Positions 5,509 through 54,763 of a stretch of DNA of 64,000 nt are shown in pieces. How positions within the stretch are numbered: the stretch's first letter is position 1; the number at the start of each line of letters is the position of its first letter. The position numbers and the translations under genes are program-made. Source of the DNA: Candidatus Poribacteria bacterium (GTDB lineage: Bacteria; Poribacteria; WGA-4E; WGA-3G); the NCBI GenBank assembly GCA_022821065.1, contig JAJEEK010000073.1, forward strand, positions 8,575 to 72,574, in the 5' to 3' direction. The notes beneath the pieces are model-generated. The model saw only the letters and a program-made list of their open reading frames with translations, did no database searches and was not told the origin of the DNA.

Positions 5509-5563
5509 TATATGCCTCCATAAAAGTAATCTCATCCGTTTCTTGAAAATGGTTTAAAAGCTG

Positions 5564-6376
5564 CTATACCTGACGAAATCCGCTGTTCGTACGATGCCAG
5601 TTCCGTCCGTGGTCTGGATCGCGGAACTGGATATTTCTACCGAGCAGCTGCTTCAGCACATCATTTTCGCCTGCTAATTCGTCGTCAGTCAACTGTCGCG
5701 GCATATCTTCTTGCGGATAGATGACCGATCTGTTGTACATACCGAGCAATCCGACGCGCGGTGTGTCCGTTCGATTCGCCCGTGACTGATGCCAGATCGC
5801 ACCGTTTGTGAACATGATAGAACCTTTCGGTGCGACAGCAACGCTCATCTCAAGCTCCTCTGCCTCCCCTAATTCGGGACGACGGAGCGTTTTGTGTGAG
5901 CCTGGAATGCACGCTGTCGCGCCATTTTCTTCCGTGAAATCGTCTAACATCCAGACCGTCTGCCCGGTTAGCGAACCGGACGGAAAGGGTGCTTGCATCG
6001 CCCAATACGGATAGTCGATATGCCAGCCTCCATCGGGTGCTCCCGGTCCGACGATATTCGCTGTAAACGTCGAGGCGATGACATCTTCGCCGAGCATCCG
6101 TTTCCATACGGCGACGACGATCGGATGCTGAATGAAACGCCGGAAGATTGGCGATTTCCCGACGATTGCCCAGACGCGTCGGATTTTACCGTCACCGTAA
6201 CTGTGGTCAAAGCCGTTTGCGATGTCTTCTTCGACTAACTTCCAGATTACCTCGCGCGCTTCGTCCGCTTCATCATCAGTAATCACGTTTTCGATGATGT
6301 GGAAACCGATTTCGCGGAGGTCGCCTTCAACACGGTCAAGCCTTTCTGAATCCAATGCTGATCTGATGTGTAGCAT
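5564..6376 (-). CDS. Phytanoyl-CoA dioxygenase (PhyH) family protein
   Basis: WHID (HxD), LDDFTEENGAT..IPGSH, distal WH and R. Confidence 0.9.
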   Translation of the reverse strand: MLHIRSALDSERLDRVEGDLREIGFHIIENVITDDEADEAREVIWKLVEEDIANGFDHSYGDGKIRRVWAIVGKSPIFRRFIQHPIVVAVWKRMLGEDVIASTFTANIVGPGAPDGGWHIDYPYWAMQAPFPSGSLTGQTVWMLDDFTEENGATACIPGSHKTLRRPELGEAEELEMSVAVAPKGSIMFTNGAIWHQSRANRTDTPRVGLLGMYNRSVIYPQEDMPRQLTDDELAGENDVLKQLLGRNIQFRDPDHGRNWHRTNSGFRQV

Positions 6377-6390
6377 ATTTCACCTCTGTG

Positions 6391-7383: not shown

Positions 7384-7424
7384 GGGTTATTTCCTTTCTC
7401 TATCAATTCGATTTCTATTTTCCT

Positions 7425-7724
7425 CTAATTGTTGCTTGTAGACTTATATTTTCGTCGCGTAAGGGAGATACCACCGAAACCGCTGATGATCGCGATGTAA
7501 AAGCCAAAATCGTACCACCATCCGGTGTTTTGGAATTCATAGACCCGGATATCCGGATTAAAAATGCCCCAAATCAGTGAAATTGGCGCGATCCAGCCGT
7601 GCCAGATGCCCCAGAAAAACCCTGCAGGTTTCTCGGCAGTATGTTTGCCATCACCGGGGACGCATCCCGCGGAAGTGATAAGTGTTATCAAAAGTAGTAA
7701 GCAAATCAGTTTTTGGGTATTCAT
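7425..7724 (-). CDS. Small conserved membrane lipoprotein
   Basis: SAGC lipobox; AGFFWGIWHGWIAP...NTGWWYDFGF; 4-nt overlap with upstream stop. Confidence 0.75.
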   Translation of the reverse strand: MNTQKLICLLLLITLITSAGCVPGDGKHTAEKPAGFFWGIWHGWIAPISLIWGIFNPDIRVYEFQNTGWWYDFGFYIAIISGFGGISLTRRKYKSTSNN

Positions 7725-8716
7725 TCTTTTACTCCGTTTTCATTATCAACGATTGCACGCGTCAATGCCCAATCCAAGCGTCGTCGGTAGTGTCCATCGC
7801 GGCGTATGCCTTTGAATGCTGTCAAGAAAACATCGTGCGTTTTCTCGCGGATTGTTGCTAAGCGATCATTGAGCATATCTATATCTACGTCCCACGGCAC
7901 GCCGATCTTCGTGATGGAACGGCAGTGGACACGGATTGGATAGTCTCCCAATTCTGCTGGTGGACAAAAACGGATAGAGGCGGAAACAGTGTTATCTATG
8001 GCGATGAGTCCGAGATTCCCATCAGGATCGTTGAACACAATACTGCGGTTGCCAGAAGGTTGCGGTAGGTGTCTGCGAAGTTCGTTGAGACCACCGAGGA
8101 ACCGATTGTTACGCCAGATCCTAACGTCTGGTGTTACGTGTGGTGCAAACAGCGCGAGACCTACCGGATGCTCCGTATCCTCAAACATAACTGAAACCCC
8201 CCTGCCCCCCTTATCAGGGGGGTAATTTGTTTTATCTTCTGTTTGCGGAACTAAAGAAATGAAGTCCTGCAATCGTTGTAGGAACAGACCGCTCCGAATG
8301 AACGCCTCTGGGATAATCGCTGCCACCCATCCGCAATGTGTCAAGCACTGTTCAAGCGCGTATTTGTAGAGATCGTCGTAGCGTGTTGCTTCTGGGAAAG
8401 GTAAACCTCGGCGTGTGGCGGAGTTGCGTGCTAACCACGGTGGATTGGTGATGCAGACATCAAAGCCTGTAGGAAAGTCGGCGAGTGTATCGCGTTGCAC
8501 AATCCCTTTCGCACCCGGCTTGATGTCAAAGAATGCCCAATCTCTGCATTGCAGGTTTGCTGCGTCAATCAGTTGTGGAATGTCTTTAGCACCTGCGAAC
8601 GGTTCTAAAGCCACTTGTTGTTCTAAGTGAGACGCTTCCGCCCATGACAGGAAAGGTTCGAGTTGAAACGGATTCCCGCGTGTGTAGTAGCGTCCACTCG
8701 CTCGTTTTTCGTCCAT
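7721..8716 (-). CDS. Putative orphan amino (N6-adenine) DNA methyltransferase, gamma-type motif order
   Basis: GRYYT (motif X), LEPFAG (motif I), ITNPPW (motif IV). Confidence 0.7.
   Translation of the reverse strand: MDEKRASGRYYTRGNPFQLEPFLSWAEASHLEQQVALEPFAGAKDIPQLIDAANLQCRDWAFFDIKPGAKGIVQRDTLADFPTGFDVCITNPPWLARNSATRRGLPFPEATRYDDLYKYALEQCLTHCGWVAAIIPEAFIRSGLFLQRLQDFISLVPQTEDKTNYPPDKGGRGVSVMFEDTEHPVGLALFAPHVTPDVRIWRNNRFLGGLNELRRHLPQPSGNRSIVFNDPDGNLGLIAIDNTVSASIRFCPPAELGDYPIRVHCRSITKIGVPWDVDIDMLNDRLATIREKTHDVFLTAFKGIRRDGHYRRRLDWALTRAIVDNENGVKE
8196..8225. repeat. Short G/C palindromic element read in-frame within the methyltransferase
   Basis: ACCCCCCTGCCCCCCTTATCAGGGGGGTAA; encodes YPPDKGGRGV on the minus strand. 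Confidence 0.55.
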
Positions 8717-11649: not shown

Positions 11650-12924
11650 ATGATTCAACTGATTCTACAACTTGTTTCTGATTTTAAGTCACTATTTCCA
11701 CGACGACTTATTTACGCTGCGATTTCAATCAGTAGTGCTGCCGCTTTTGTGTTGTTCGGTTATGAGTTTATCCGTTCCGTGTCCTCGTCGCTGTTCATTG
11801 AGGCGTATAGCGCGGAAAACCTCCCACGCGGTATGATGGCGATCCCACCGAGTATGATCGTGATGTTGTACTGCTACGGTCGCCTGCTCTCGTGGCTGGG
11901 CGCGACGCGTGCTTTGGCGATAACCTCGCTTTTTTCTTGTATCTTGATCCTCGGATGCTATGCTGCGCTTCTCCGAGGAATGGATTTCGCAGCAGCGATC
12001 ATCTATGTGTTTCGTGAAGCGTATATCGTGATCGTCATTGAGCAGTTCTGGTCGTTCGTCAACAGCGTCCTGACGACTGAACAAGCGAAACGTATTAACG
12101 GTCCCTTCTGTGCCGTTGCGTCTATCGGTTCATTTGCCGGTGGTATGCTCGTGAGCAGATGGGCAACCGTATTAGGAACTGAGGCACTACTCCTTTTCAC
12201 AGCGGCATCTCTCGTACCGACAGCGGTTTTCGGCGTAATTGCTTATAGATTCGGTGGTGAACCGAAACCGAGCGAGGAAGAGGCTGGCGGAAGGCTTGGG
12301 CATCTCGGTATAGGGACACTCTTTCGCTCCAGATACCTGATTTTTATCGGCGTATTGATCTTAAGCACGCAGCTGGTCTCTACGGTGCTGGATCTCCGTT
12401 TCAATGGATTGGCGGAGGTGGAACTCCCCGATAAGGATACACGGACAGCATTTTTCGGTCTTGTGTACGGATATCTTGGACTTGCCGCGGGTATCTTGCA
12501 ACTGGTGGTTGTGCCGTTGGCACTCAGATTTGTCGCCTTACGCTATCTTCATCTCGGTATTCCGATTGTTCATCTCGTCAGCAGTTTTGCGTTGACGGTT
12601 TCTCCCTCACTTCGAAGTGGGACAGGTGCATACGTCATCTTTAAAGCCTTAGATTACTCGATTTTCCGGGCAGCGAAAGAATTGTTCTATATGCCGCTCT
12701 CTTATGATTCACGCTACCGCGCGAAACAGATCATCGATTCGTTCGGATACCGGTTCTCAAAGGGTGGTAGTGCGGGTGTGATTGAAATGGTAAGATTGGG
12801 TGTCAAAACGATTCCGGGGATTGCGTTCTCAATTACGGCTATGGTCGCAGCGATAGTATGGACACCCATCGCTTTCAGTTTGACGCGGGCATATGAAAAA
12901 TTAGTAAACACGGAAAAGCCGTAA
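11650..12924 (+). CDS. Npt1/Npt2 (TLC ATP/ADP translocase-like) nucleotide transporter
   Basis: Multi-TM; FIRSVSSSLF, QFWSFVN, QAKRI, DYSIFRAAKELFYMPL...RYRAKQIIDSFGYRF. Confidence 0.8.
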   Translation: MIQLILQLVSDFKSLFPRRLIYAAISISSAAAFVLFGYEFIRSVSSSLFIEAYSAENLPRGMMAIPPSMIVMLYCYGRLLSWLGATRALAITSLFSCILILGCYAALLRGMDFAAAIIYVFREAYIVIVIEQFWSFVNSVLTTEQAKRINGPFCAVASIGSFAGGMLVSRWATVLGTEALLLFTAASLVPTAVFGVIAYRFGGEPKPSEEEAGGRLGHLGIGTLFRSRYLIFIGVLILSTQLVSTVLDLRFNGLAEVELPDKDTRTAFFGLVYGYLGLAAGILQLVVVPLALRFVALRYLHLGIPIVHLVSSFALTVSPSLRSGTGAYVIFKALDYSIFRAAKELFYMPLSYDSRYRAKQIIDSFGYRFSKGGSAGVIEMVRLGVKTIPGIAFSITAMVAAIVWTPIAFSLTRAYEKLVNTEKP

Positions 12925-40847: not shown

Positions 40848-40932
40848 ACAGTTTCCAGTTAACAGTTTCCAGTTTCCAGAGAAGAGACCTCTTTTCTTAA
40901 CTGGTGACTGGTGACTGGGTACTGGGTACTGT
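40848..40932. repeat. Inverted heptamer-array repeat (family E)
   Basis: (CAGTTTC)n facing (ACTGG(T/G)(G/T))n. Confidence 0.7.
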
Positions 40933-40937
40933 CTCAT

Positions 40938-42821
40938 ATGACTACCACTTTAAGAAAAAAAGATAACTTCATAGATGCCTTAGCACACCGGATACTGATA
41001 TGCGATGGTGCTATCGGAACTGAACTTCGCAAACGGATACCCGCACATCTGCAGTGCGTTGATGCCTGCAACATTTCTACAGAGCATGCCGAGAAGGTGA
41101 TGGCGGTTCATCGCGCTTATGCCGACGCCGGGGCCGATGTTATCCAGACGAATACCTATCAGGCAAATAGAGAAGCGTTAGCAGTCCACGGTTTAACTGA
41201 ACAGGTCGAAGAAATTAACAAAACTGGTGTGTTCCTAGCACGCGAAGCGGCAACCGAGGCAAATTATATAGCAGGTTCCGTTGGACCGATTTCGTTCCAA
41301 AATTTTGATGCTGCGGTGCCTGCTACCAAAACAATCCGACAAATCTTCAAACAACAGATGGATGCACTCGTTGACGCAGGTGTTGATCTCCTCATTCTCG
41401 AAACTTTCGTCTCCCCGAAACAGGCAGAAGTCGCTACGAAACAGGCACTCACTTACGGGGTCCCTGTCATCGTTGAGATTAGCGGTGTTTCAGGTGGAAC
41501 TGTCGGTGCTGGCGTGGATGTACGTGTCTTCGCGCAGGAGTTGGAGCAACTCGGTGCACACGCAGTCGGTATCAATTGCCGGGGACCGCACGATCTGGTT
41601 GAAGCGATGGAACTCCTCGCGCCTGTCATCAAAGTACCGATTGCCGTTCAACCCAACGCTGGCAATCCGAGAGTCGAGCAAGGCGAAGTGGCGGTCTCCT
41701 ATACGGTGGAGGCTGAGGTTTTTAGGGACTACGTCAGAAAACTGGTTGAACTCGGCGCAAACATGATTGGCGGTTGTTGCGGAACGACCCCGGAATATAC
41801 AGCAAGGATCCGACAGGTCATCGGAGGACGTGAACCTGTCCAACGTGAGTCAAGGATCTTCGTCCTCCCGAAAATCAGGTCAGGGGGTGTTTCTTCAAGG
41901 GCGCCTCGCCCCTACAATAACCCTGTGCAGCAGGTATTTGAAACACGCGAACGTATCGTGAGTGTAGAGATGCGCGCCAATACATTCCCCCAATTGCGGG
42001 CGATGCTGAAGGAAGCAGAGCGGCTCGCCGCAATCGGTGTAGACCTGTTTGATGTGACCGACAATTCCGGTGCAGCGGTGAACATCGGTGCTGTGGGTAC
42101 GGCGTATCGGCTTCAGCAGGCAACACAGATTCCGACGCTCATCCATTGGACAACCCGATCGCGTAATCTCATCAGTATGCAATCGCACCTGTTAGAAGCA
42201 GAGGCGTTGGGCGTTCGGGGCATCGTCGCTTTATCCGGGGACCATCCGAAAGTCGGTCCTTATGAGACGGCGAGTCTTGTGCCAGATGTCCGGGGCGCGG
42301 TTCAGTTGATGAAACTTATCGCTCGGTTGAATCAAGGGCAGCTTGCCGACGGGTCATCTATTGGTGATCCCTGTGGATTTTACTATGGCGGGGGTTTCAC
42401 AATCGCCGAGAATCTCCAACCGCACGTCAAACATCTCGCAAATAAGGTGGCACAAGGGGCTAATTTCGCCTATACACAACCCGTCTGGACTTACGAGGAC
42501 ATCGCGCGCGCCCAGCAGGCGACAGGACATCTCGGTATAAAGATGCTTTATGGAATATTACCACTCACCAGCTTCCGCAGTGCCTCCTATCTACGCGACA
42601 ATTTAGGGCTTTATATCCCTCAGTTTATCGTTGACAAATTCCGTGACCTCGGAGATACCGCCGCAAAAGAACTCGGTATGCGGTTATGTTTGGAACTGGT
42701 TCGAGACATCCGTAATCTGGATGAGTGTGAAATTGACGGTATCTATTTAATCCCACCTGCTCGGATGAATTGGAAAAACAGAGCCAGTGTCATCTCGGAG
42801 ATCGTTAGAGCCTACCGTTAG
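40938..42821 (+). CDS. Bifunctional homocysteine S-methyltransferase / methylenetetrahydrofolate reductase (YitJ-like)
   Basis: DGAIGTEL, GINC, QPNAGNP, IGGCCGTTP; C-terminal MTHFR domain (VTDN, ALSGD, YTQP). Confidence 0.88.
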   Translation: MTTTLRKKDNFIDALAHRILICDGAIGTELRKRIPAHLQCVDACNISTEHAEKVMAVHRAYADAGADVIQTNTYQANREALAVHGLTEQVEEINKTGVFLAREAATEANYIAGSVGPISFQNFDAAVPATKTIRQIFKQQMDALVDAGVDLLILETFVSPKQAEVATKQALTYGVPVIVEISGVSGGTVGAGVDVRVFAQELEQLGAHAVGINCRGPHDLVEAMELLAPVIKVPIAVQPNAGNPRVEQGEVAVSYTVEAEVFRDYVRKLVELGANMIGGCCGTTPEYTARIRQVIGGREPVQRESRIFVLPKIRSGGVSSRAPRPYNNPVQQVFETRERIVSVEMRANTFPQLRAMLKEAERLAAIGVDLFDVTDNSGAAVNIGAVGTAYRLQQATQIPTLIHWTTRSRNLISMQSHLLEAEALGVRGIVALSGDHPKVGPYETASLVPDVRGAVQLMKLIARLNQGQLADGSSIGDPCGFYYGGGFTIAENLQPHVKHLANKVAQGANFAYTQPVWTYEDIARAQQATGHLGIKMLYGILPLTSFRSASYLRDNLGLYIPQFIVDKFRDLGDTAAKELGMRLCLELVRDIRNLDECEIDGIYLIPPARMNWKNRASVISEIVRAYR

Positions 42822-42834
42822 CGGCTCCACTTAA

Positions 42835-43013
42835 TGGTTATCAGTACGCAGTACGGTTTTTCTGCGAAAACCTTTCGGTTATCAGTTGTCAGTGGCCAGT
42901 CGCCAGTTAAAAAAAAGAAACTTGATGAACCAGACTCTCACTGCGAGGCACTCTTAACTGGTAACTCGTAACTGGAAACTGGAAACTATTTCCACTGACA
43001 ACTGATAACTGAC
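42835..43013. repeat. Inverted heptamer-array repeat (family E), long composite
   Basis: TATCAGT/TGTCAGT/GCCAGT units facing AACTGGT/AACTGGA/AACTGA units. Confidence 0.7.
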
Positions 43014-43020
43014 ATAAACT

Positions 43021-44949
43021 ATGCAAACTCGTGAAACGACCCGCTCATCAACCCGTGTTACAGGACGTTCGCTTCTCTTAGGCGTTTTACTCATCCCTGT
43101 CAACGTCTATTGGATGACACTTGTTGAGGTGAAGTACTACTCACTTGACGGTTCGTGTCTTCCGCTTTTTATCCAGCCTGTTTTCATTATGTTTGTCTGC
43201 GTCCTCGCGAACTGTGTGTTGAAATACCTTGCACCGCGGCAAATGCTACAGCAGGGGGAGTTACTCACAGTTTATATTATGGTGGCGATCTCCTGTACGT
43301 TCGCCGGACACGACACGATGCAGAACATGTTCGGCAGTATCGCGCATCCATTCCGGTTCGCGACGGACGAGAACGAATGGCAGGCACTCTTTTTTCGGTA
43401 TCTACCGACGTGGCTCACCATCTCGGATGCACAGAGTTTGCAAGGCTTCTACGAGGGCGAAGCGACTTTCTATACAAAGCACAACTTTTCGGTCTGGATA
43501 AAGCCGCTGATCTTCTGGGGTCTCTTTTTCCTAATTATGATGTTCATGATGCTCTGCATCAATACACTCGTCCGCAAACGCTGGGCAGAACAAGAGAAAT
43601 TGGCGTATCCGATTATCCAACTCCCGCTCCGACTTTCGGAGGATGGCGGTATCCTTCTCCTGAAGAATCGGATGATGTGGATGGGGTTCAGTATCGCTGT
43701 AGTCATCGGTGTGATTAATGGAGTCCACTATCTTTTCCCACAGTTTCCAGAGATCCCATATATCAAGCGGACAGCCGTATTCCAGAATATCTTCACCGAG
43801 CGTCCGTGGAACGTTATTCGCGGCACGCGAATCTCGATATATCCGTTTGCTGTCGGGTTAGCCTTTTTTCTACCGTTGGACCTCTCCTTTTCCTGCTGGT
43901 TTTTCTTTGTCGTGCGTTTAGCGGAGTTCGTCATCGGTGCAGCACTCGGTACGCGCTATTTCCCAGCACTGAACGAGCAAGCTTACGGTGCTTGGATCGC
44001 GCTTTTCTTGCTTGCGCTCTGGGTCACACGTCAGCATTTAAGCGAGGTATTGAAAAAGGTGTTCGGGTTTAAATCGCGTCTTGACGATTCCAATGAACCG
44101 ATGCCGTATCGTGCAGCCTTCTTAGGTATTCTCGGATCGCTCGTCGCGCTCGGTATCTTCGCTTCTCTGGCAGGGATGGCGTTATGGGTTGCGGGTGTTT
44201 TCTTCGGCGTCTATTTTCTGCTCTCTTTCGCGATCACGCGCGTCCGCGCGGAACTCGGCACACCGCACGAAATTTATTACGTGAATCCGCACGATATGTT
44301 GGCAACCGTAGGTGGCACGCGTCGGTTCGATCCAAGCAGTCTCACGATTATGTCGCTCTTCTACTGGTTCAATCGCGGCTACCGGAACCATCCGATGCCG
44401 AACCAGATTGAGGCGTTTAAATTGGGAGAAGCGACAGGGATGGGAAACCGGCGTTTATGGATGGCGATGCTGATCGCAATCGTTGTCGGGATCCTGGCGA
44501 CCTTTTGGGCGAACCTCGACATCACCTTCCGAAACGGTGCCGTTGCGAAAGCCGGTGGTTTCAAGGATTGGGTCGGTCGAGAATCGTTCAGTCGGTTGCA
44601 GCGATGGCTCCATAATCCAGCAGAACCGAACGTTATCGGTATGGGGTTTATGGGGATCGGTGCGTTGTTGACATTCGTGATGATGTATATGCGGATGCAT
44701 TTCTTGTGGTGGCCCTTCCATCCTGCAGGCTATGCACTCGCGATCAGTTTCGCAATGGACTATTTCTGGTTCGCCTTCTTCGTGGCATGGTTCCTGAAGC
44801 TAATGATTCTACGGCACGGCGGTTTGCGGCTGCATCGCAAAGTCGCACCCCTATTTTTAGGACTAATCTTAGGCGATTACGTCATCGGCAGCACCTGGGC
44901 AATCATCGGCCCCCTATCCGGCTTGCGTACCTATAAGATCTTCATCTAA
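43021..44949 (+). CDS. Polytopic membrane protein (DUF6785/DUF6784, OPT-like putative transporter)
   Basis: Many TMs; RWAEQEKLAYPI, WWPFHPAGY, PLFLGLILGD. Confidence 0.7.
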   Translation: MQTRETTRSSTRVTGRSLLLGVLLIPVNVYWMTLVEVKYYSLDGSCLPLFIQPVFIMFVCVLANCVLKYLAPRQMLQQGELLTVYIMVAISCTFAGHDTMQNMFGSIAHPFRFATDENEWQALFFRYLPTWLTISDAQSLQGFYEGEATFYTKHNFSVWIKPLIFWGLFFLIMMFMMLCINTLVRKRWAEQEKLAYPIIQLPLRLSEDGGILLLKNRMMWMGFSIAVVIGVINGVHYLFPQFPEIPYIKRTAVFQNIFTERPWNVIRGTRISIYPFAVGLAFFLPLDLSFSCWFFFVVRLAEFVIGAALGTRYFPALNEQAYGAWIALFLLALWVTRQHLSEVLKKVFGFKSRLDDSNEPMPYRAAFLGILGSLVALGIFASLAGMALWVAGVFFGVYFLLSFAITRVRAELGTPHEIYYVNPHDMLATVGGTRRFDPSSLTIMSLFYWFNRGYRNHPMPNQIEAFKLGEATGMGNRRLWMAMLIAIVVGILATFWANLDITFRNGAVAKAGGFKDWVGRESFSRLQRWLHNPAEPNVIGMGFMGIGALLTFVMMYMRMHFLWWPFHPAGYALAISFAMDYFWFAFFVAWFLKLMILRHGGLRLHRKVAPLFLGLILGDYVIGSTWAIIGPLSGLRTYKIFI

Positions 44950-45054: not shown

Positions 45055-45167
45055 TTATTGCCCGTTTATTACCGAATATTCCCTTGACTTTTCGTCTAAT
45101 GTATGGTAGATTTAAAATAAAATCCTCTCCCCACCATTCCGAAATAAAATGAAGGTTATTACTCTCT

Positions 45168-47045
45168 ATGCGAAAACAAAACTTCAACGAAAAACTTATC
45201 CGATTACTCAAAGATAACCCAGACCTCCTTGACGACGCAGGTGAACTCATCCCGGCTGCTGTCAGAGACCATGCATGGCGACTTAACCACGACCTAATCA
45301 GGTTACTCCTTACTGACAATGAGATAAAGGCAAAGTTCTTTGACGAAATTGACGGGCATTGGGTCTTCAACCACAATATCTTCATTAACTACATCACCGA
45401 CAAAAACTTCCTTGCCAACTCCTACACCCGATTCCGTAATAAGATCGGTTTGAACATCGGAGACAAATTCCTCCGTGAACGCGGCGAAGTCTCACTCGTC
45501 TGGCCCTATAAAGATTGTGTCTTAGAGGGTGGGCAAACAAAGGAAGAAGAAAAGCGCAAAGAGATTTTCTTCAACGAAATCCTTGCGCAAGACGAACTCA
45601 ATCGAATGTTCGATCCAAAGGTCCTCACCAACTGGAAACGCTATACCGCTGAAAGCGATACCAATGAAATCAGGGGGGTAAATTGTGATAAGTATCATAA
45701 AAATGGAATTGGAGAGTTTAGACGGGATGAAAACGGCACGATTCGAGAAAATCTCATCATCAAGGGCAACAATCTCATCGCGCTCCACACCCTCAAACAG
45801 CAATTCCGTGGGCAGGTAAAGGTGATTTATATTGACCCACCCTATAACACCGGAACCGATAGTTTCGGCTACAATGATAGTTTTAACCATTCCAGTTGGC
45901 TGACCTTTATGAAAAACCGATTGGAAGTGGCAAAGGAACTATTAACAGATGATGGCGTGTTTTTTGCCAGTTGTGATGACAACGAGCAAGCACATTTGAA
46001 AATTTTAATGGACGAAATCTTTGGCAATGAGAATTTCATTACCAATTTTGTAGTCATCCGTGCCGAAGGCGGTGGCCTCGCTAAACAAGTTGTGAAAGGA
46101 CACGATTATCTGTTGACCTATGCAAAGAACATCGAAAATTTTGAACCCTTAAGAAGGCCAAAAGATATCAGAGGCAAAATTGTTGAAAAAGATGGTAAGA
46201 AATATTGGATTGAAGAAGACTGGTTGAGAGTAGAATTCGGGAAATATGGGACTTGTTACTATGAAGATATTGAGAAGATTAAAGGGAAAGCTAAAAAAGA
46301 TGAAATTGATCAAGGTATAAAAGACGGTCAGTACATCCTTCTGAATAAAGGAAAAAACAAAACAATTGTCGGGAGATATAGAGCATTAGATGAAGATGGA
46401 TCAAAGTTTTATTCTGTTTTAAAACACCTTAATGCAGACGGTAAGAATGAACTAAAGGATCTTATGGGTGAAGATATTTTTGCTTTTCCAAAGCCAACTG
46501 CATTGCTAAAAGAGATCATACTCGGTGCTACTTTTTTTAAAAAAGATAAAGATGCCATTATTCTCGACTTCCACGCTGGTTCAGGAACTGCTGCACATGC
46601 TGTTTTAGAATTGAACAAGCAAGATAATGGAAATCGCAAATTTATTTTGGTTGAGCAGATGGATTATGTTGAAGATGTCACCGTTCCACGTGTGGAAAAA
46701 GTAATAAAAAATCAGGGCGACGGTGATTTCATCTATTGCGAATTGATGGAATATAATCAAGTCTACATAGACAAAATCCAATCCGCGCAATCTGCTAAAG
46801 AACTCGTAACACTCTGGCAAGACATCGCCGAAAACTCGTTCCTGAACTGGTATGTCAACGAACAAATGCCGCGAGATGCAGTAAACGATTTCATCGCCAT
46901 TGACGACTTTGAAAAACAGAAACACCTACTGGCAGAGCTGCTGGATAAGAACCAACTTTACGTCAATCTCTCCGAAATAGAGGATGCGGATTTTGCGGTG
47001 AGTGCGGAAGATAAGGCGTTGAATGGGGCGTTTTATGGAAAATAG
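45168..47045 (+). CDS. mod: Type III restriction-modification DNA methyltransferase (Mod)
   Basis: NLIIKGNNL, IYIDPPYN, FPKP, ILDFHAGSGT (beta order); cognate res downstream. Confidence 0.92.
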   Translation: MRKQNFNEKLIRLLKDNPDLLDDAGELIPAAVRDHAWRLNHDLIRLLLTDNEIKAKFFDEIDGHWVFNHNIFINYITDKNFLANSYTRFRNKIGLNIGDKFLRERGEVSLVWPYKDCVLEGGQTKEEEKRKEIFFNEILAQDELNRMFDPKVLTNWKRYTAESDTNEIRGVNCDKYHKNGIGEFRRDENGTIRENLIIKGNNLIALHTLKQQFRGQVKVIYIDPPYNTGTDSFGYNDSFNHSSWLTFMKNRLEVAKELLTDDGVFFASCDDNEQAHLKILMDEIFGNENFITNFVVIRAEGGGLAKQVVKGHDYLLTYAKNIENFEPLRRPKDIRGKIVEKDGKKYWIEEDWLRVEFGKYGTCYYEDIEKIKGKAKKDEIDQGIKDGQYILLNKGKNKTIVGRYRALDEDGSKFYSVLKHLNADGKNELKDLMGEDIFAFPKPTALLKEIILGATFFKKDKDAIILDFHAGSGTAAHAVLELNKQDNGNRKFILVEQMDYVEDVTVPRVEKVIKNQGDGDFIYCELMEYNQVYIDKIQSAQSAKELVTLWQDIAENSFLNWYVNEQMPRDAVNDFIAIDDFEKQKHLLAELLDKNQLYVNLSEIEDADFAVSAEDKALNGAFYGK

Positions 47046-47079
47046 ACAATTTTAAATTGAGGAGGTTTACTCAAGCATA

Positions 47080-47715
47080 ATGCTTACGAAAAATCAACAA
47101 ACCGTCTTTAATTGGTTGAACGACAAACTCCAGTTGCCAGTGTTCGCGGAAACGTACAAGGGAGCATTGGATCTCCTAGATCGTAAATCGTCGGGTTATA
47201 TCACCTTTGTATCTCATGCCGGCAGAGATTTGATGAACAGACTTGCTGCGACCGTGAAAGGTATCGAAAGTCAACAGGATCAACAAAGGAATCGCTTAGA
47301 TGAGTTACAAAACTATTGGAAAAACGAGTGGGGAACCGAGAGGATCAACAAAGTGGGCGATTCTGGGAACGGACATTTAATCCCTTATAGAGTTTGTGAA
47401 CAGATAAAAAATCTGATTGATGCCCACAAAGCAGGTCGCCTCCGAGCCTCAGATAGGGATAACTTGTTCTTTACTACTTTTTTGGATTATGCTGACAAAG
47501 AGAGAATTCCGCGGAATTTTGTGAAAGAATGGAAAGGCGCAAGAACGTGGTTTCAGGCACACGCCCATCTACGAAAGCCGGATTTTCGCCAAAATGTGTC
47601 ATCTGAAGTGGCAATGCATTTTAGGAATCTTGATAACTTTCTATACGTCGCTGCAAGCAGCGAATTTGAACGGATAAGGGGTATCCATGAAATCTTGGAA
47701 GAAACCAACGAATGA
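47080..47715 (+). CDS. Hypothetical protein, HEPN-like (candidate nuclease effector)
   Basis: GAGGAGG RBS; SHAGRDLMNRL and WFQAHAH motifs reminiscent of helical HEPN/Abi-like domains. Confidence 0.6.
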   Translation: MLTKNQQTVFNWLNDKLQLPVFAETYKGALDLLDRKSSGYITFVSHAGRDLMNRLAATVKGIESQQDQQRNRLDELQNYWKNEWGTERINKVGDSGNGHLIPYRVCEQIKNLIDAHKAGRLRASDRDNLFFTTFLDYADKERIPRNFVKEWKGARTWFQAHAHLRKPDFRQNVSSEVAMHFRNLDNFLYVAASSEFERIRGIHEILEETNE

Positions 47716-50578
47716 AATGATAGATAAGGCTCTAGGATCGGTTAAAAAGGAAACTGACCGTCAGTATTTCTTTTCTCGACTGAAAAATCCTATGTGGATT
47801 CAACCTCTCGCTGAGCAAGGCTATTTTCAGTCCCCCCCGAATATCAGGCGTTTTGACGATGGTTCTATTCAATTTCCTTTCTGGCCGGAGCTTCATTACC
47901 TCAAAAACGTGTCCAATGAAGCCCCCAATGAGGTTATTAACTTAGTACTGAGTCTTCCCAAAGTTGATAACTCAAGGGTCTACGATGGCATCTTGGATAT
48001 TGCATTGCAACTCCATGGAGAGCAATCTGTGAAACTTAAGCCCAAGATACTAGAATATACAAGTATGGAGCATCAGCTTTTGCCACATAAATACGCAGAT
48101 TTGTTGGCACATTGGGCAGCGGGGAATCAAACATCGGCTGCATTAGAACTCTTAAAGGAACTCGTCGCTTTTGCCCGCCACCCACGATCAGAGGGCAAAC
48201 AGAGACATAGAAAAGAAGATCCGATGAATTTCGGTACCACACTTTATCCATTTCCTCGTTTCAACTCTTGGGGATACTCTGAGATATTGACCAAGGGAGT
48301 TCATCCTCTCGCTGAGAAGGATCCCTACAAAGTTGCTTGTCTCCTCATTCATGCCACGGAGAATATGATTCGCTTGCGGATCCATCAGGCGGATCTTGAC
48401 AAGTCAGCAGACCTTTCCGAAATTTGGTGTCCTCGCCTTCATGAATCAAATAGGAACCATGAAGATCCCGAGAAAGCCCTATCTCATGCCTTGGCCTTTG
48501 CATGCGAAAAGGTATACGAAAAGTCACCCAATACAATTGCCGACTTGGATAGGAGACTGCGAAAGCAACAGTGGAATATTTTCAAACGCCTGCGTCAGCA
48601 CCTTTATGCTCGATATCCAAATGAACAAACCAAACCCTGGATCCGGGAATTGATTCTGGAACGTGAAGATTATGACCAAGCACAACACTCTTACGAATTT
48701 CAGCAGATGATACGACAGGCTTGTGAGCACTTTGGTGAGACATTACTGAGAAAAAAAGAACGTATAGGCATCTTTAACGCTATCTATAGCGGACCGTCAA
48801 AAGAAGATTTCCGTGATTTTATGGGAGAGAAATTTACTGAGGAAGGTTTCCAGAAACGCCAACATTATTTTCATCGGCAGCAATTTAAGCCTTTCACGTC
48901 TGTGCTATTTGGGAAATATAAAACTCACTTCCAAGAGTTGGAAGCTAAAGCCGATGATCCAATTTCTGAAGAGGATTACCTGCCATTTAAAACAGAGGTT
49001 GGATCCGTGTCTAATCGCAGCCCCCAATCCGCTGAGGACCTTGCAAATCTTACAGATGAGGCGTTACTCACCTACATAAACGATTGGGAAACAAAAGACA
49101 AATTTTCTGGACGTGATCCGTTTGTAGAGATAAACATTGAAGCACTCGCCGGTACTTTTCAAACTGTTTTCAAGGAGTCAATTATCCCTGACACGAATAG
49201 ACTCAAGTTCTGGATGAAAAACCGTGAAAGCATTAAACGTCCTATTTATGTGCGGATGATGATTAATGCAATGCAAGCGAGCGTAAAGGAAAAGAATTTC
49301 TACCAACTCAACGAATGGTTAATATTCTGTGAATGGGTGCTTTCACATCCTGACGAAGGGGCAGACACTGACTATATAATCAGCGACGAGTCCAGAGAGA
49401 ATCCACACTGGGCTAATTCACGCCGGGCAGTCACTGACTTCATTGGCGTATGTCTTGAGAAGGATGTAGATGTCCCAATTACTGCACGAGAACAACTCGC
49501 GAAACTCTTGGAAATACTTTGTACGCAATATGATAGGCGATTGGATGAGAATAAACCAACGATCTTGCCCCCTTATGATCCATTCACTGAAGGCATCAAT
49601 AATACGCGAAGCCGGACGCTGGAGAATCTGGTCAAATTCGGTTTCTGGCTGCGGAGACAGGATTCGGATACCGATGTCTCATCAGAAGTAACGACAATCC
49701 TTGAAAAACGCTTTGTCCCGGGAATCGAACATCCCTTGACACTGCCGGAGTATGCCGTTCTAGGTATGAACTACCCTCGGATTGTTAATCTCAACAAAAC
49801 ATGGGCGATCAAGCATAAATCAGGCTTTTTCCCACGGGAGGTGTTATCTATATGGCTAGCAGCATTTGAGAGTCTCGTGAAATATAATGAACCGTCCAAA
49901 ACTATTTTTCAGATTCTTCGAGATGACTTTAATTTGGCATTGGAACATCTGACAGATTTCAAAAAGCGAAACCTCTCTGGAAAAGGACCAATTGATATCC
50001 TCGGAGAACACTTGTTCACCTACTATTTGTGGGAAGTGTATCCACTCAAGGGAGAAGAAAGCCTGCTTGAACGATACTACGAACAAACCAATAGCAATCC
50101 GGAGCATTGGGCTAATTTATTCAATGATATCGGTTATCGCTTGTCAAACAGTGGGGGGCAATTAACTCAAAATCTGAAAGACAGAATAACTGATTTCTTT
50201 AAGTGGCGCTTGAAAGAAAGAGAAGAGACAGAACTTCGGCAGTTTACTTTTTGGCTGGAAGCCGAGTGCCTAGAAGCTGAATGGCGGTTGGATGCCTATT
50301 CCAAGATTCTGGATATCTGTAAAATTGAGGATGGCGGAATTCGGTTAGAAGCGTTATGTAAGATGCTTCCAGATTACACAGCGCAAGTGGTTGAGTGCTT
50401 CGCTAAGCTAACCGATGGAATCAAAGATGACAATATTTACATCCGAACTGAGGAGGCGAAAACTGTCCTGAAAGCTGGTCTGAAAAGCAGTGACGAAAAT
50501 GTACATCGTAAGGCAGAACGGGCCCGTGACAATCTACTCCGGGCGGGCAGATTTGATTTATTGAATCTGGACGATTGA
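47687..50578 (+). CDS. Large predicted alpha-helical hypothetical protein (candidate defence sensor)
   Basis: 963-aa open frame; YFFSRLKNPMWIQPL..GYFQSPP N-terminus; no P-loop or other catalytic motif seen. Confidence 0.8.
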   Translation: MKSWKKPTNEMIDKALGSVKKETDRQYFFSRLKNPMWIQPLAEQGYFQSPPNIRRFDDGSIQFPFWPELHYLKNVSNEAPNEVINLVLSLPKVDNSRVYDGILDIALQLHGEQSVKLKPKILEYTSMEHQLLPHKYADLLAHWAAGNQTSAALELLKELVAFARHPRSEGKQRHRKEDPMNFGTTLYPFPRFNSWGYSEILTKGVHPLAEKDPYKVACLLIHATENMIRLRIHQADLDKSADLSEIWCPRLHESNRNHEDPEKALSHALAFACEKVYEKSPNTIADLDRRLRKQQWNIFKRLRQHLYARYPNEQTKPWIRELILEREDYDQAQHSYEFQQMIRQACEHFGETLLRKKERIGIFNAIYSGPSKEDFRDFMGEKFTEEGFQKRQHYFHRQQFKPFTSVLFGKYKTHFQELEAKADDPISEEDYLPFKTEVGSVSNRSPQSAEDLANLTDEALLTYINDWETKDKFSGRDPFVEINIEALAGTFQTVFKESIIPDTNRLKFWMKNRESIKRPIYVRMMINAMQASVKEKNFYQLNEWLIFCEWVLSHPDEGADTDYIISDESRENPHWANSRRAVTDFIGVCLEKDVDVPITAREQLAKLLEILCTQYDRRLDENKPTILPPYDPFTEGINNTRSRTLENLVKFGFWLRRQDSDTDVSSEVTTILEKRFVPGIEHPLTLPEYAVLGMNYPRIVNLNKTWAIKHKSGFFPREVLSIWLAAFESLVKYNEPSKTIFQILRDDFNLALEHLTDFKKRNLSGKGPIDILGEHLFTYYLWEVYPLKGEESLLERYYEQTNSNPEHWANLFNDIGYRLSNSGGQLTQNLKDRITDFFKWRLKEREETELRQFTFWLEAECLEAEWRLDAYSKILDICKIEDGGIRLEALCKMLPDYTAQVVECFAKLTDGIKDDNIYIRTEEAKTVLKAGLKSSDENVHRKAERARDNLLRAGRFDLLNLDD

Positions 50579-50584
50579 TCAAGG

Positions 50585-50941
50585 CTGTATCTATTCATCT
50601 TGCATCGCCGTCCGACAGAAGAACATGAAGAATTGCAAACACTGGTTCACCAGCACATTCAGGAAACATCCCGCAAAGAGGAGAGAGAAAAAATGGCACA
50701 GACAATGGCTGAATACCTAATTGAACAAGGTGAAAAACAAGGCGAAAAGCGTGGTGAAAGACGTGGTGAAACGCGAGCAAAACGGGAGGATATCCTCAAG
50801 TTGCTACGCCTTCGATTTGATTCGGTTCCCGAATCCGTTGCCAGCAGAATTACCTCAATACGGAGTCTTTCGCGACTTAATACGCTTTTTGATAGAGTAG
50901 CGACGGCTAAAACACTTGATGACATTGATTGGGAAAACTAA
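50585..50941 (+). pseudogene. 3' fragment of an Rpn/YhgA-like (transposase_31-like) gene
   Basis: Frame reads LYLFILHRRP...EQGEKQGEKRGERRGE...LRLRFDSVP with no convincing RBS or start; begins right after the 963-aa stop. Confidence 0.6.
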
Positions 50942-50949
50942 AGTTTACG

Positions 50950-53544
50950 ATGCTTGAGCAATTTTTACATGAACAACTCACTATCGCTTTCAGCTACGGG
51001 GTCCCCAAACCCGAAATACCGGATAGCATCACGCAAAATCTGAATCCTGAATTTGAGTTGCGTCCCTACCAAGAAGACGCTTATGTGAGTTTCGTTCACT
51101 ACTTCAACACCGATCTCCCCGGTAAAGAAAAACCGCTCCACCTGCTATTCAACATGGCAACCGGCAGCGGCAAAACCCTCATCATGGCAGGGCTGATCCT
51201 TTACCTCTATGAGAAAGGCTACCGCAACTTCCTCTTTTTCGTCAATTCTACCAATATCATCGAAAAAACGAAAGACAACTTCCTCAACCCACGCGCCGCA
51301 AAATACCTTTTCAGTCAAGACATCCGTTTTGAAGGGAAGCCGGTCACCGTGACGCAGGTTGACAATTTCGAGGGAGTCAACGAAAACGACATCAATATCT
51401 GCTTCACCACAATCCAGCAGCTCCACACCGATATGACAACACAAAAGGAAGACGCCTTAACTTATGAGAATTTCGTTGAGCAGCAAATTGTGTTGTTAGC
51501 AGATGAAGCGCACCATATAAATGTTAGCACCAAGTCTCAACAAGGGATGCAACTGTTTGAAAGTTGGGAAAACACGGTCGAGCGTATTTTTAAGTCCAAT
51601 AATACCAATCTATTGCTGGAATTCACTGCTACCCACGATTACGAAACACCTACGATGGTAGAGAAGTATCGGAACAAAGTTATCAATCGCTATGATCTGA
51701 TAAACTTTCGGAACGATAAGTTTTCAAAAGAGGTTGTGCTTGTGCATTCCGATTTGGATCAGGACTCACGTATCTTGCAGGCACTTATTCTCAATCAGTA
51801 CAAACAAGAAGTTGCAGCGAAAAACGGCATTAACCTAAAACCCGTCATTCTGTTTAAGGCACAACGGACAATCACACAATCACAAGAAAACAAAGAAAAC
51901 TTTCACAAACTGATTGATGGGCTAACTGGGGACCGACTTCAGGATATTCGGAAATCGCACCTTGAGATTGTTCAACGCGCGTTCCGCTTCTTTGATGAAA
52001 ATAACATGAGTGCTGAGGGTTTGGCGCAACGCTTGAAATCTGAGTTTCAGGAAGCATACTGCCTCTCGGTTAACGATGAAAACGAAAAAAAGAACTATCA
52101 GATGCAAGTCAACACGCTTGAAGACAAAGATAATCCGATCCGTGCAATCTTTGCCGTGCAGAAACTCAACGAAGGATGGGATGTCCTAAACCTATTTGAT
52201 ATTGTCCGTTGCTACGAAGCGCGCGATTCAGGCAAAAACAGAATCGGAAAAACGACAATCTCCGAAGCACAACTTATCGGGCGCGGTGCCCGCTATTTCC
52301 CTTTTGTCCTGCCAGATCACCCAGACCGGTTCCGCCGAAAGTTTGATGAGGAACTCAACCATGAATTGCGCGTGTTGGAAGAATTGCATTACCACAGCAT
52401 TCACGATTCGCGCTACATCTCCGAAATCCGAACTGCACTCATTGAGCAAGGGATGATGGACGAGCGTGTTATAACTCGCGAACTAAAGTTGAAGGACGAG
52501 TTTAAGAAAACCAATTTTTACAAATACGGCGTTATTTGGCTCAATGATCAGGTCCCGAAAGACTATCGACACGTCCAATCCTTTGACAATCTCGCGCCTC
52601 TCAGTGTGAAGCAGAAAAATTATGAATATACGATCCATACAGGTGCCGCAGGTGAAACCACTGTGATGGAAGAGGACACAACACCGATGCAACAAAACGG
52701 CGATGGGTGGGATATACCCGTCGTTGATATTGAACAGAATATTCTTAGATCCGCAATTGCCCGCAATCCGTTCTTCACCTTTGCATCGCTCAAACGGTAC
52801 TGTCCACATTTAACATCCATCCGCGAATTTATGACATCAGAGAATTATTTAGGCAGCTTGGCAATCACTTTCAAGGGAAATCTCGCCTATTTAGAAGAGA
52901 ACCGTCCAGCAAAACTGTCCGCATGTGAAGGGTTGTTAAGTCAAATCGAGACCGAAATTCGGCAACAAATCACTGAATACGAAGGAACAAAACACTTTCG
53001 ACCGAGACATGTCCACGATATTTTTAAAGATAAACTTCTGAAATTCGATGCCCGAAACCCACGCGCCACTATTGATTGGCAGTTTGAAGATCAGGACTGG
53101 TTTCCTTTCAACACGCTTTACGGCACGAGCGAAGAAAAAGTCTTCGTGGATCTGTTAATCAGAAAGATTAAAGATTTAGCCATAGATTACGACGACATCT
53201 ATCTACTTCGCAACGAAATGCATTTTGCCATCTACAACTTCTCTGATGGACAAGCGTTCTATCCCGATTTTGCCTTGTTCCTTCAAGAGAAAAAAGGGAA
53301 AGTGGTATGTTATCAATTTTTCGTTGAACCCAAAGGTAAATTCCTCCAAATGCATGACCAATGGAAAGAAAACTTCATGCGCGATATTACCACCGAATTT
53401 AAGGACAAACTCCTAACATTTGAAAACACAAAATACCGGTTGATTGGTTTGCCATTCTATAATGAAGAAAATGAAAACCCATTTTGGGAAGCTCTTGATG
53501 CTACTTTAACGAATACAAATCATATGCAAGAACAGAACAATTGA
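50950..53544 (+). CDS. res: Type III restriction endonuclease subunit (Res)
   Basis: MATGSGKT, ADEAHH, EFTAT, LNEGWDV, QLIGRGAR, YPDF..VEPKG. Confidence 0.92.
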   Translation: MLEQFLHEQLTIAFSYGVPKPEIPDSITQNLNPEFELRPYQEDAYVSFVHYFNTDLPGKEKPLHLLFNMATGSGKTLIMAGLILYLYEKGYRNFLFFVNSTNIIEKTKDNFLNPRAAKYLFSQDIRFEGKPVTVTQVDNFEGVNENDINICFTTIQQLHTDMTTQKEDALTYENFVEQQIVLLADEAHHINVSTKSQQGMQLFESWENTVERIFKSNNTNLLLEFTATHDYETPTMVEKYRNKVINRYDLINFRNDKFSKEVVLVHSDLDQDSRILQALILNQYKQEVAAKNGINLKPVILFKAQRTITQSQENKENFHKLIDGLTGDRLQDIRKSHLEIVQRAFRFFDENNMSAEGLAQRLKSEFQEAYCLSVNDENEKKNYQMQVNTLEDKDNPIRAIFAVQKLNEGWDVLNLFDIVRCYEARDSGKNRIGKTTISEAQLIGRGARYFPFVLPDHPDRFRRKFDEELNHELRVLEELHYHSIHDSRYISEIRTALIEQGMMDERVITRELKLKDEFKKTNFYKYGVIWLNDQVPKDYRHVQSFDNLAPLSVKQKNYEYTIHTGAAGETTVMEEDTTPMQQNGDGWDIPVVDIEQNILRSAIARNPFFTFASLKRYCPHLTSIREFMTSENYLGSLAITFKGNLAYLEENRPAKLSACEGLLSQIETEIRQQITEYEGTKHFRPRHVHDIFKDKLLKFDARNPRATIDWQFEDQDWFPFNTLYGTSEEKVFVDLLIRKIKDLAIDYDDIYLLRNEMHFAIYNFSDGQAFYPDFALFLQEKKGKVVCYQFFVEPKGKFLQMHDQWKENFMRDITTEFKDKLLTFENTKYRLIGLPFYNEENENPFWEALDATLTNTNHMQEQNN

Positions 53545-53746: not shown

Positions 53747-54763
53747 ATGAATCTACCCGTTGGGAAACTCAAACACGATTTCTTAAAAGAGCTGCTGCCC
53801 ACAAGCGACAGGAGCACAGACGTAATTGTTGGTCCACAACTCGGTGAAGATGCCGCAGTCATCAAGTTCGGGGACAACTATCTCGTTGCAACCAGCGATC
53901 CGATTACCTTTGCGACGGAAGATATTGGATGGTACGTGGTATGCGTCAACAGTAATGACATCGCAGCGATGGGTGCCGTACCGAAATGGCTCCTGGTAAC
54001 CCTATTGTTACCGGAAGACACAACACCTGAAATGGTGCGCGACATCATGACGCAACTCACACAAGCATGTGAGACGTTTGACATTGCCCTGTGTGGTGGA
54101 CACACCGAAGTCACACCCGCCGTAACACAACCTGTTGTCGTAGGACAAATGATGGGAGTTGCCTCCAAGGATTCCTTGTTCACTTCGGCGGATGCTCGTA
54201 TAGGGGATGTCTTAATTCTTACAAAAGGACTCGGCATCGAAGCGACTGCGATCATCGCGCGCGAGCGGGAAGCGCAGGTACGTGAGAAATACGATGCCTT
54301 ATTCTTGGAGCAAGCGAAGAACTATCTCACGGATCCGGGAATTTCTGTGCTAAAGGATGCACAAATCGCGATCGCTACCGGCGGCGTACACGCTATGCAC
54401 GATGTGACAGAGGGCGGTGTCGCAACTGCTGTTTATGAGTTAGCGACTGCAGCTGAGTTAGGCGCAGTTGTCTATTCAGATAAACTTCTCGGTTCACCAA
54501 CATTATATAGCCATATAACACGGACACTGTGCGATATGTTCGCGCTGAATCCGATCGGTGTTATTTCATCGGGTGCCATGTTAATCGCAGCAGCACCCGA
54601 AAAAGGCGAAACGATTTGCCAAGACCTTGGTAAAGCCGGTATCAACGCGGGCATTGTCGGAAAGCTATTGCCATCCGAGCGCGGAATGTCGCTGGAAGAT
54701 GCCACCGGTACACGACAACCCCTACCTATTTTTGAGACAGATGAAATCGCTAAACTTTTGTAG
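53747..54763 (+). CDS. AIR synthase/HypE-like family protein
   Basis: GEDAAV, DPITF, NDIAAMGA, GGHTEVT, MHDVTEGG. Confidence 0.85.
   Translation: MNLPVGKLKHDFLKELLPTSDRSTDVIVGPQLGEDAAVIKFGDNYLVATSDPITFATEDIGWYVVCVNSNDIAAMGAVPKWLLVTLLLPEDTTPEMVRDIMTQLTQACETFDIALCGGHTEVTPAVTQPVVVGQMMGVASKDSLFTSADARIGDVLILTKGLGIEATAIIAREREAQVREKYDALFLEQAKNYLTDPGISVLKDAQIAIATGGVHAMHDVTEGGVATAVYELATAAELGAVVYSDKLLGSPTLYSHITRTLCDMFALNPIGVISSGAMLIAAAPEKGETICQDLGKAGINAGIVGKLLPSERGMSLEDATGTRQPLPIFETDEIAKLL

Follow-up and report, generated by a model that had tools for sequence, protein, structure and literature searches.

Why should two unannotated, overlapping genes lie between the two halves of a Type III restriction-modification (R-M) system, whose methyltransferase (mod) and restriction (res) genes are normally adjacent? 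The question is raised by a locus within a 64,000-nucleotide stretch of DNA (termed here the window) from a Candidatus Poribacteria bacterium (assembly GCA_022821065.1, contig JAJEEK010000073.1, positions 8,575 to 72,574). Here mod (45168-47045) is followed on the same, plus strand by orfA (47080-47715), by orfB (47687-50578), by a short frame considered further below, and by res (50929-53544); mod and res are thus 3.9 kilobases (kb) apart rather than adjacent, as would be typical of Type III. An earlier note, made from the sequence alone, had described five same-strand frames in which an open reading frame (ORF) of 211 amino acids (aa) and an overlapping one of 963 aa part mod from res, and the ORF list bears out this description: orfA and orfB are of just these lengths and overlap by 29 nucleotides (nt; 47687-47715), with orfB in the +1 frame.

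The answer favoured here, to which we give roughly even chances, is that orfB senses a phage protein and that orfA is the toxic effector acting on this signal--that is, that the two form a split Dsr1-type immune protein that rides in R-M operons and is able to act alone. The pair appears to belong to a known kind of defence system, as a member whose effector and sensor are split, because orfB is homologous to the sensor of Dsr1 and because relatives occur in which effector and sensor are fused. This homology also gives substance to the more general claim of the earlier note, namely that the two genes constitute a defence-type cassette.

The sensor protein and its predicted effector

The relationship of orfB to Dsr1 emerges from a match between residues 5-753 of orfB and positions 302-1018 (of 1227) of the PADLOC model of Dsr1 (PDLC04166), with an E-value of 1.1e-23 (2.4e-22 in a scan of the whole genome). 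The matched part of the profile, which starts at position 302, lies behind the SIR2 domain. The same genome contains a second Dsr1-like ORF (contig C46, 5870-7546), which matches the model with an E-value of 8.7e-153 over positions 678-1224 only; because the C-terminal half of orfB (residues 440-915) aligns with this ORF (hhalign 81.8%, E 1e-5, 422 columns), the similarity between orfB and Dsr1 spans the whole of the sensor region. The AlphaFold2 (AF2) model of orfB (pLDDT 81) is an all-alpha solenoid, so that a large helical-repeat sensor such as forms the C-terminal part of Dsr1 is found in orfB as well. Pfam detects neither an NTPase nor a SIR2 domain in the protein, and searches of Pfam, NCBIfam and PDB sequences return no meaningful match. 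Judged by these comparisons, orfB is a sensor-type alpha-solenoid homologous to the Dsr1 sensor region, much as the earlier note had surmised in calling the large protein a helical-repeat sensor without an NTPase motif. The C46 ORF itself (locus L031, ORF 1480-3186) encodes 568 aa, lacks a Pfam match and is followed by a 485-aa open-ended ORF (3222-4676); truncation or splitting of a Dsr1-like gene may account for it.

The second protein, orfA, is all-helical and belongs to an unannotated family with 427 close relatives and, at 50% identity, 558 representatives, none of which bears a family name. Among 102 diverse members there is no common Pfam family, and the family profile (A3) finds nothing meaningful in PDB. 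At least 90% of these 102 members conserve W12, Y26, H46, R49, N53, W80, F158, H163, F181, L206 and N210, and four of these residues (His46, Arg49, Asn53 and His163) do not vary at all among 30 close relatives. The earlier note had pointed to two motifs of the small protein, SHAGRDL and WFQAHAH, as signs of a HEPN-type RNase effector. Both motifs are present (residues 45-51 and 157-163), and the conserved polar set includes the histidine and arginine residues that the note had picked out. They do not suffice for a HEPN assignment, however: the conserved motif is H46-x2-R49-x3-N53 together with H163, as opposed to the R-x4-6-H of HEPN proteins; an arginine 6-8 residues before H161/H163 in the orfA of the window is not conserved in the family; and neither orfA nor any of the 102 members matches a HEPN family of Pfam. 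Whatever its fold, orfA is a likely effector, as indicated by its conserved histidines and arginine and by the N-terminal fusion of its kind of domain to the sensor.

Such fusions, of about 1180 aa with an N-terminal domain of about 225 aa, make up 20 of the 120 orfB relatives listed, and 16 of the 57 orfB copies in a sample of the phylum (described below) lie in open frames of at least 1176 aa. Fusions whose N-terminus is truly of the orfA type occur as well (P0270, P0294, P0322 and P0387). The A3 profile aligns with the N-domains of the 20 fused forms (hhalign 94.5%, E 7.5e-8, 192 columns), with H46, R49 and H163 lining up with H, R and H; an earlier comparison with a shallow alignment (A1) had reached only 54%. 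Because the profile aligns with the fused N-domains, and because orfA-type fusions exist, orfA appears to be a separately encoded, divergent version of the domain occupying the effector position. In each of the four fused forms tested, this domain matches PF18165 (pP_pnuc_1) of Pfam with E-values of 8.8e-7 to 1.2e-4, P0064 being the only one to exceed the cut-off of the model (29.1 versus 26.3 bits) and the other three falling below it; the fused protein of locus L020 matches PF18165 as well. Neither orfA itself (at E-values of up to 10) nor any of the 102 family members does so, and its remote homology to PF18165 is therefore indirect, since the link runs through the fused forms. A feature search of the ESM Atlas with orfA lists a cluster of PF18165 (0.90; 190 features in common). 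These similarities make orfA a predicted nuclease. Literature searches for PF18165, pP_pnuc_1 and 'pPIWI-associating nuclease' found no paper, and a search combining pPIWI, predicted nuclease and HEPN found nothing on the domain.

A different N-domain, of about 174 aa, precedes an orfB-like sensor (E 9e-19) in a 1090-aa protein of a Streptomyces plasmid (L029). This domain carries a similar SH..RE...L motif; by hhalign it resembles orfA only weakly (E 0.0012, probability 19%). The gene of this fused relative adjoins a Tn7-like transposon.

Related loci also keep the two genes together. Across 27 such loci from species-representative genomes (23 Poribacteria, 1 'Poribacteria bacterium', 2 Gammaproteobacteria metagenome-assembled genomes and 1 Latescibacterota), 23 have orfA immediately before orfB, with an overlap of about 26-29 nt; of the remainder, one is fused, one has a decayed orfA, and two are cut by the end of a contig. 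Nearly every split locus preserves this overlap and the +1 frame of orfB, even though fused forms exist elsewhere; the overlap could serve translational coupling or permit an occasional frameshift that yields a fusion protein. In two further loci the pair is altered: orfB is broken at L047 (8871-13794) by two opposite-strand genes, orfA being fused there to the first 258 residues of orfB, and at L044 (2432-6529) a second orfB-like gene (1365 aa, with a longer unannotated N-terminal region) adjoins the pair.

The fused forms are the real argument that orfA and orfB would bind to each other. Prediction of a complex between orfA and residues 1-780 of orfB gave a median score of 0.47 over three runs (0.47, 0.46 and 0.56), as against 0.01 for the best of three controls, with a partner pLDDT of at least 67 and a contact agreement between runs of at least 41%. 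The corresponding verdict is 'weak support'. In the calibration, 58 of 80 solved complexes but also 2 of 110 mismatched pairs attain this mark; the band of scores up to 0.60 contains 7 of the 80 solved complexes and both of the mismatches that pass. Because the alignments used here were our own, these calibration counts hold only roughly, and the outcome is counted as evidence neither for nor against binding.

The distribution of the pair is patchy, which is how accessory genes behave. An even sampling of the phylum (151 genomes) yielded 57 full or nearly full copies of orfB, which is present in 55 of these genomes; within the same genus it occurs in 19 of 56, and decayed copies are found too. 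The res family of the window is present in 98 of the 151. Outside the phylum the pair is rare, having been found in 2 of 400 Gammaproteobacteria sampled (the centre genome counted) and in 11 of 168 Latescibacterota. A tblastn search of a plasmid collection gave only five weak records, including the Streptomyces protein L029, a 1483-aa hypothetical protein of Haloferax and two Legionella plasmids (covering 9% of the query).

Linkage to restriction-modification genes

The R-M genes of the window have intact frames and the domains of a Type III system. Mod (625 aa) matches N6_N4_Mtase (E 1.6e-33) and TypeIII_RM_meth (E 4.8e-19) of Pfam and MTase_III of PADLOC (E 2e-144); Res (871 aa) matches ResIII of Pfam (E 1e-30) and, over residues 20-858, positions 16-858 (of 873) of REase_III of PADLOC (E 5.4e-138). 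The centre of mod (45950-46550) is variable: at the DNA level its tiles match 2 of the 27 related loci, versus 10-15 for the flanking parts of mod, a pattern to be expected of a (swapped) target-recognition region. In related genomes, about one in three full-length matches to res contains at least one in-frame stop codon, and some of these lie right beside orfA and orfB; this could reflect frequent inactivation of res or errors of assembly.

The arrangement mod-orfA-orfB-res, far from being a singular event, recurs in many genomes. In 8 of the 27 loci the pair stands between a complete mod on its upstream side and a complete res on its downstream side, and a decayed version of the same order is seen in 1; 2 loci have res downstream and a contig end upstream; 3 have the order res-mod-orfA-orfB; and 1 has a full mod only. 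In a further 4 (L004, L005, L015 and L017; at about 8100-8350) only the last 30-50 codons of mod are kept, at 60-84% identity, just before orfA. The phylum sample tells the same story: 29 of its 57 orfB copies have a same-strand res within 3.5 kb downstream, at a distance of 33-45 nt in 12 of them, and 6 have a same-strand res within 6 kb upstream, so that 35 of the 57 lie beside this res family.

Outside the phylum the partners are of other kinds. In G407 and L040 an hsdR-like gene, a fusion of N6_Mtase and S, a half-S gene, orfA and orfB follow one another, the hsdR-like genes being 70% identical across two phyla; in L016 an hsdS-like gene abuts orfA. In L041, L043, L044, L045 and L047 an Eco57I-like methylase of about 1100 aa (tblastn identity 24-26%) precedes the pair with gaps of 6-7 nt, and is itself preceded by an SNF2-like helicase of about 1120 aa in all of these but L043, which is cut by the start of the contig. 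At L018 the gene for an MmeI-family enzyme lies 300 nt downstream of the pair. With the queries used, no R-M gene was found near L013 or near the fused forms L042 and L046. The association with R-M genes on which the earlier note had remarked is, in short, a real, recurrent and testable pattern that extends from the 35 phylum copies beside res to Type I-like, SNF2-plus-methylase and MmeI-type partners.

A quick maximum-likelihood tree of 35 orfB sequences (the careful search being unfinished, and the midpoint root serving for drawing only) places the Type III-linked copies of Poribacteria, the SNF2-methylase-linked copies of Latescibacterota and the two Type I-linked copies in separate, well-supported clades, within which copies lacking R-M genes are nested. 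From these partner-wise clades and the R-M-less copies nested in them it follows that the link to R-M is old, has involved several unlike partners, and was sometimes lost while the pair survived. One such case may be followed in place: L021 is syntenic with the window, having (as judged from ORF sizes) MTHFR-like and DUF6785 genes before and an AIR-synthase-like gene after the locus, and retains orfA, orfB and only a remnant of res.

The main rival to the favoured reading takes this linkage at face value: the pair would keep watch over the R-M system, not over a structural protein of the phage, following the logic of PrrC and EcoprrI. PrrC is an anticodon nuclease encoded in the EcoprrI Type Ic R-M locus; it is a single protein, has an ABC-type ATPase domain, and is silenced by the R-M complex. 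By analogy, the binding partner of orfB would be a subunit of the R-M system (methyltransferase or specificity), or else an anti-restriction protein of the phage that attacks this subunit, for instance a DNA mimic, or something that restriction produces, and a block of restriction would unleash orfA. The best argument for such a guard is its fixed place: orfA follows directly, on the same strand and with gaps of 6-40 nt or overlaps, a methyltransferase or specificity gene in at least four architectures (Type III mod, Type I-like M-S/S, hsdS and Eco57I-like methylase). Moreover, where mod has otherwise been lost (L004, L005, L015 and L017), it is the 3' remnant of mod that stays upstream of orfA, and the correspondence between orfB clades and types of R-M partner would fit co-adaptation. 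The best arguments on the other side are intact copies that have no R-M genes, and the unlikeness of the partners. No res of this family lies on the contig or within 12 kb of 22 of the 57 copies, which are mostly open frames; R-M-less copies persist inside R-M-linked clades; and the partner enzymes (Type I, Type III, SNF2 plus methylase, and MmeI) are structurally dissimilar, which argues against one conserved contact. In addition, the sole experimental data on the sensor family, in the accessible portion of a 2026 preprint (PMC12803255), point to a capsid protein. On balance a guard of this sort seems unlikely, though it is the competitor to be taken most seriously.

The same idea can be put more generally, and with no greater likelihood: orfA and orfB would be a companion module of restriction systems, joined to at least four unlike R-M architectures, that reads out the state of restriction itself. 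Its signal might be an anti-restriction protein of a phage, a methylase or specificity subunit that is blocked, or a product of restriction--again a conjecture of low probability--and when restriction fails it would kill the cell or degrade nucleic acids. If this were true, the module would be a general PrrC-like guard built upon a Dsr1-type sensor with a new nuclease fold.

A second rival denies the linkage any functional meaning. The interval between mod and res in these genomes of sponge symbionts would be an insertion hotspot, the pair one cargo among several, and the tie to R-M a mere consequence of co-transfer. The interval does accept insertions, because other cargo is found in it: a DUF3800 gene with an unannotated partner of 417-512 aa (L001:5434-7972, L011:6025-8099 and L025:5759-8345), an HTH/Peptidase_M78 (ImmA/IrrE-like) gene (L008:12323-14842 and L025:12091-13756, with a DUF4411 gene beside it in L025), and DDE transposases (L006 and L023). 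Since the loci were picked for holding orfB, other cargo is under-sampled among them. The window offers an example of its own in the frame between orfB and res (50600-50941, plus strand; 113 aa, with a TTG start), which the earlier note had taken for an Rpn-like fragment. Its own matches are weak (TIGR01784, E 0.018; DUF4351, E 0.066), and it falls short of the full-length PD-(D/E)XK nuclease/transposase-like protein described by TIGR01784. It corresponds, with 46-52% identity, to the C-terminal part (about 110 aa) of frames of 345-375 aa elsewhere in the same genome; four full-length frames (on C63, C12, C71 and C87) match TIGR01784 (the Rpn family of NCBIfam), two of them above the cut-off. 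These paralogues confirm the fragment as a C-terminal piece, and identify it, by similarity, as the 3' remnant of an Rpn-family (PD-(D/E)XK transposase-like) gene. Among the 27 related loci a remnant occurs at this place in one only (L001).

This remnant, together with a tandem array of mod copies carrying orfA and orfB remnants at L019, speaks for a site open to passing cargo. There, three copies of mod interleaved with fragments of orfA and orfB (positions 1-8300) lie upstream of an intact mod-orfA-orfB-res, which suggests repeated duplication or recombination at the locus. What a hotspot does not account for is regularity: orfA keeps a single place, right after the methylase gene, with several R-M types and in three phyla, and about 28 of the roughly 104 full-length res copies of the phylum sample (a hand count) have orfB beside them, far more regularly than a site of random cargo would. 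Mere hitch-hiking is thus also improbable, to about the same degree as the guard. At L002 and L010 (about 12010-12540) a 3' remnant of mod is found just after orfB as well; mod remnants may mark the recombination joints of cassette movement.

The surroundings of the pair in the window are in keeping with an operon, and the pair is probably co-transcribed with the R-M genes. Scans for promoters and terminators relied on consensus sequences only. They found no terminator-like site on the plus strand between mod and res and a weak sigma-70-like match upstream of mod (45084..45112, plus strand; TTGACT-17-TAGATT, 9 of 12 positions), which would be a possible operon promoter; the region holds 9 sigma-70-like sites versus a mean of 15.5 in shuffled sequences, and because shuffling yields more such sites than the region does, this one counts as a consensus match only. 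A contig of 2615 nt from a polyA 'transcriptomic' metagenome run (X1), about 93% identical and from a related strain, spans 46799-49216 and thereby takes in orfA, flanked by the 3' end of mod and the first half of orfB. Most of mod is missing from it, 45641 being joined to 46799 with 122 other letters between. A contig that crosses genes is not the same as a single transcript, carry-over of DNA being possible, and the parts that it leaves uncovered carry no meaning. The G+C content of 45.5-53.5 kb (0.38-0.46) is lower than that of the flanks (about 0.48-0.53). The flanking genes (40911-44949 and 53747-54763) encode proteins of a housekeeping-like kind, namely a fusion of homocysteine S-methyltransferase and MTHFR, a DUF6785/DUF6784 protein and a protein related to AIR synthase.

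How the pair might act

According to the favoured reading, in which the pair is a split immune protein of the Dsr1 type, orfB would recognise some phage protein produced in the course of infection, perhaps the major capsid protein, by analogy with EcDsr1 and SeAvs7. In place of the SIR2 NADase of Dsr1 there would be orfA, a small helical domain with its His46, Arg49, Asn53 and His163 and its remote pP_pnuc_1 kin. It would be held on the N-terminal part of orfB, would be freed or activated once orfB meets its trigger, and would then cut RNA or DNA, so that the infected cell is stopped (abortive infection). Carried right after a methyltransferase or specificity gene, the pair would form a second line of defence against phages that get past restriction; it could also work without R-M genes, as is suggested by the copies away from res (22 of 57), by the L021 pair without an intact res, and by the R-M-less copies in R-M-linked clades.

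Several points weigh against this account. On the effector side, orfA has no match of its own in Pfam, NCBIfam, PADLOC or PDB; its AF2 model, from a 30-row alignment, has a pLDDT of 44.6 and is too poor for a fold search; and the label 'nuclease' rests on four conserved polar residues and the name of a family that is itself a prediction, reached through matches of the fused forms to PF18165 that are mostly below the cut-off and mostly about 35 residues long. On the sensor side, the similarity of orfB to Dsr1 is remote, so that the trigger of Dsr1 cannot simply be transferred to orfB. A Foldseek search of PDB with the orfB model finds generic solenoids of the HEAT, importin and CAND1 types only, at TM-scores of about 0.2; with no specific DSR structure among them, it adds nothing beyond 'alpha solenoid'. 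The counts themselves are non-independent, most of the loci being related and from one phylum. Finally, the tight same-strand position after a methylase gene in at least four R-M architectures exceeds the ordinary clustering of genes in defence islands; so fixed a position would fit a direct functional coupling that the favoured explanation does not contain.

It is very improbable that the two proteins are instead accessory subunits of the restriction enzyme (a scaffold, specificity or licensing factor) or have a function outside defence: the pair does sit inside the operon between both enzyme subunits, and orfA is without a proven catalytic fold, but the homology of orfB to the sensor of a protein with a proven role in defence, the existence of fused single-protein forms and of R-M-less forms, the unlikeness of the R-M partner types and the patchy, accessory-like distribution all tell against it.

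Comparison with known systems

How new, then, is this cassette? The earlier note had regarded it as uncharacterised and as a candidate new system, an estimate that must be lowered for the sensor. The accessible portion of PMC12803255 describes a bilobed TPR sensor common to Avs7 and Dsr1 and reports that SeAvs7 and EcDsr1 are both triggered by the phage major capsid protein. It also describes this sensor in proteins that lack the STAND NTPase, where it accompanies effectors of the NADase, nuclease, kinase and 'HEPN-like' types, finds that the effectors are required for defence, and analyses adjacent sequences for split proteins. In so far as that portion of the preprint goes, the sensor family, the swapping of effectors and the existence of split forms have thus been described already. 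The term 'restriction-modification' does not occur in the newest text of the preprint, the search having covered this text and not the supplementary tables, which possibly list these proteins. Literature searches for the pair or for its linkage to R-M found nothing, the combination of Type III R-M, Poribacteria and defence giving general papers only. As far as these searches reach, what is new here is the orfA effector family and the systematic linkage to R-M, and the pair is accordingly less novel than the earlier note had supposed.

Should the favoured reading be correct, an unannotated effector family with 558 representatives at 50% identity would join the toolkit of the Dsr1/Avs7 sensor, and a nuclease superfamily that so far is merely predicted (pP_pnuc_1-like) would become testable. 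The pair would also provide a natural split form, handy for asking how a sensor controls its effector, and a clean, repeatedly occurring example of an immune module incorporated as a second layer in R-M operons of several types, which bears on whether neighbouring defence systems merely travel together or cooperate. Recognising the pair helps with the annotation of uncultured sponge symbionts, whose genomes are very rich in defence genes and commonly contain it (55 of 151 genomes sampled).

Among known systems, Dsr1 (PDLC04166; EcDsr1) is the one to which the pair is most directly comparable, given the homology of the sensors and an effector that is N-terminal to a large helical-repeat sensor. 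The pair differs in that it has no SIR2 domain, the effector being another, unannotated helical domain; in that orfA and orfB are separate, overlapping genes, whereas Dsr1 is a single polypeptide; and in that it is embedded in R-M operons. With the wider group of Avs7/Dsr1-sensor proteins it has in common the sensor family (provided that the match to the Dsr1 model of PADLOC carries over) and the exchange of effectors, and split proteins are among those analysed in the available text of PMC12803255; unlike Avs7, it has no STAND NTPase. That same text names a Streptomyces 'HEPN-like RNase' protein as a member with the Avs7/Dsr1 sensor.

The relationship to PF18165 ('Predicted pPIWI-associating nuclease') is of another kind: fused N-domains match this family and the orfA profile is homologous to them, whereas orfA and 101 further members of its own family do not match the model, and nuclease activity is only predicted for PF18165 itself. 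As regards PrrC, orfA and orfB have neither an NTPase nor a PrrC-type match in Pfam, NCBIfam or PADLOC, and constitute a sensor-effector pair of a different family; what they would share with PrrC is the arrangement itself--an accessory gene for a putative suicide-type nuclease, placed inside an R-M operon as a back-up layer.

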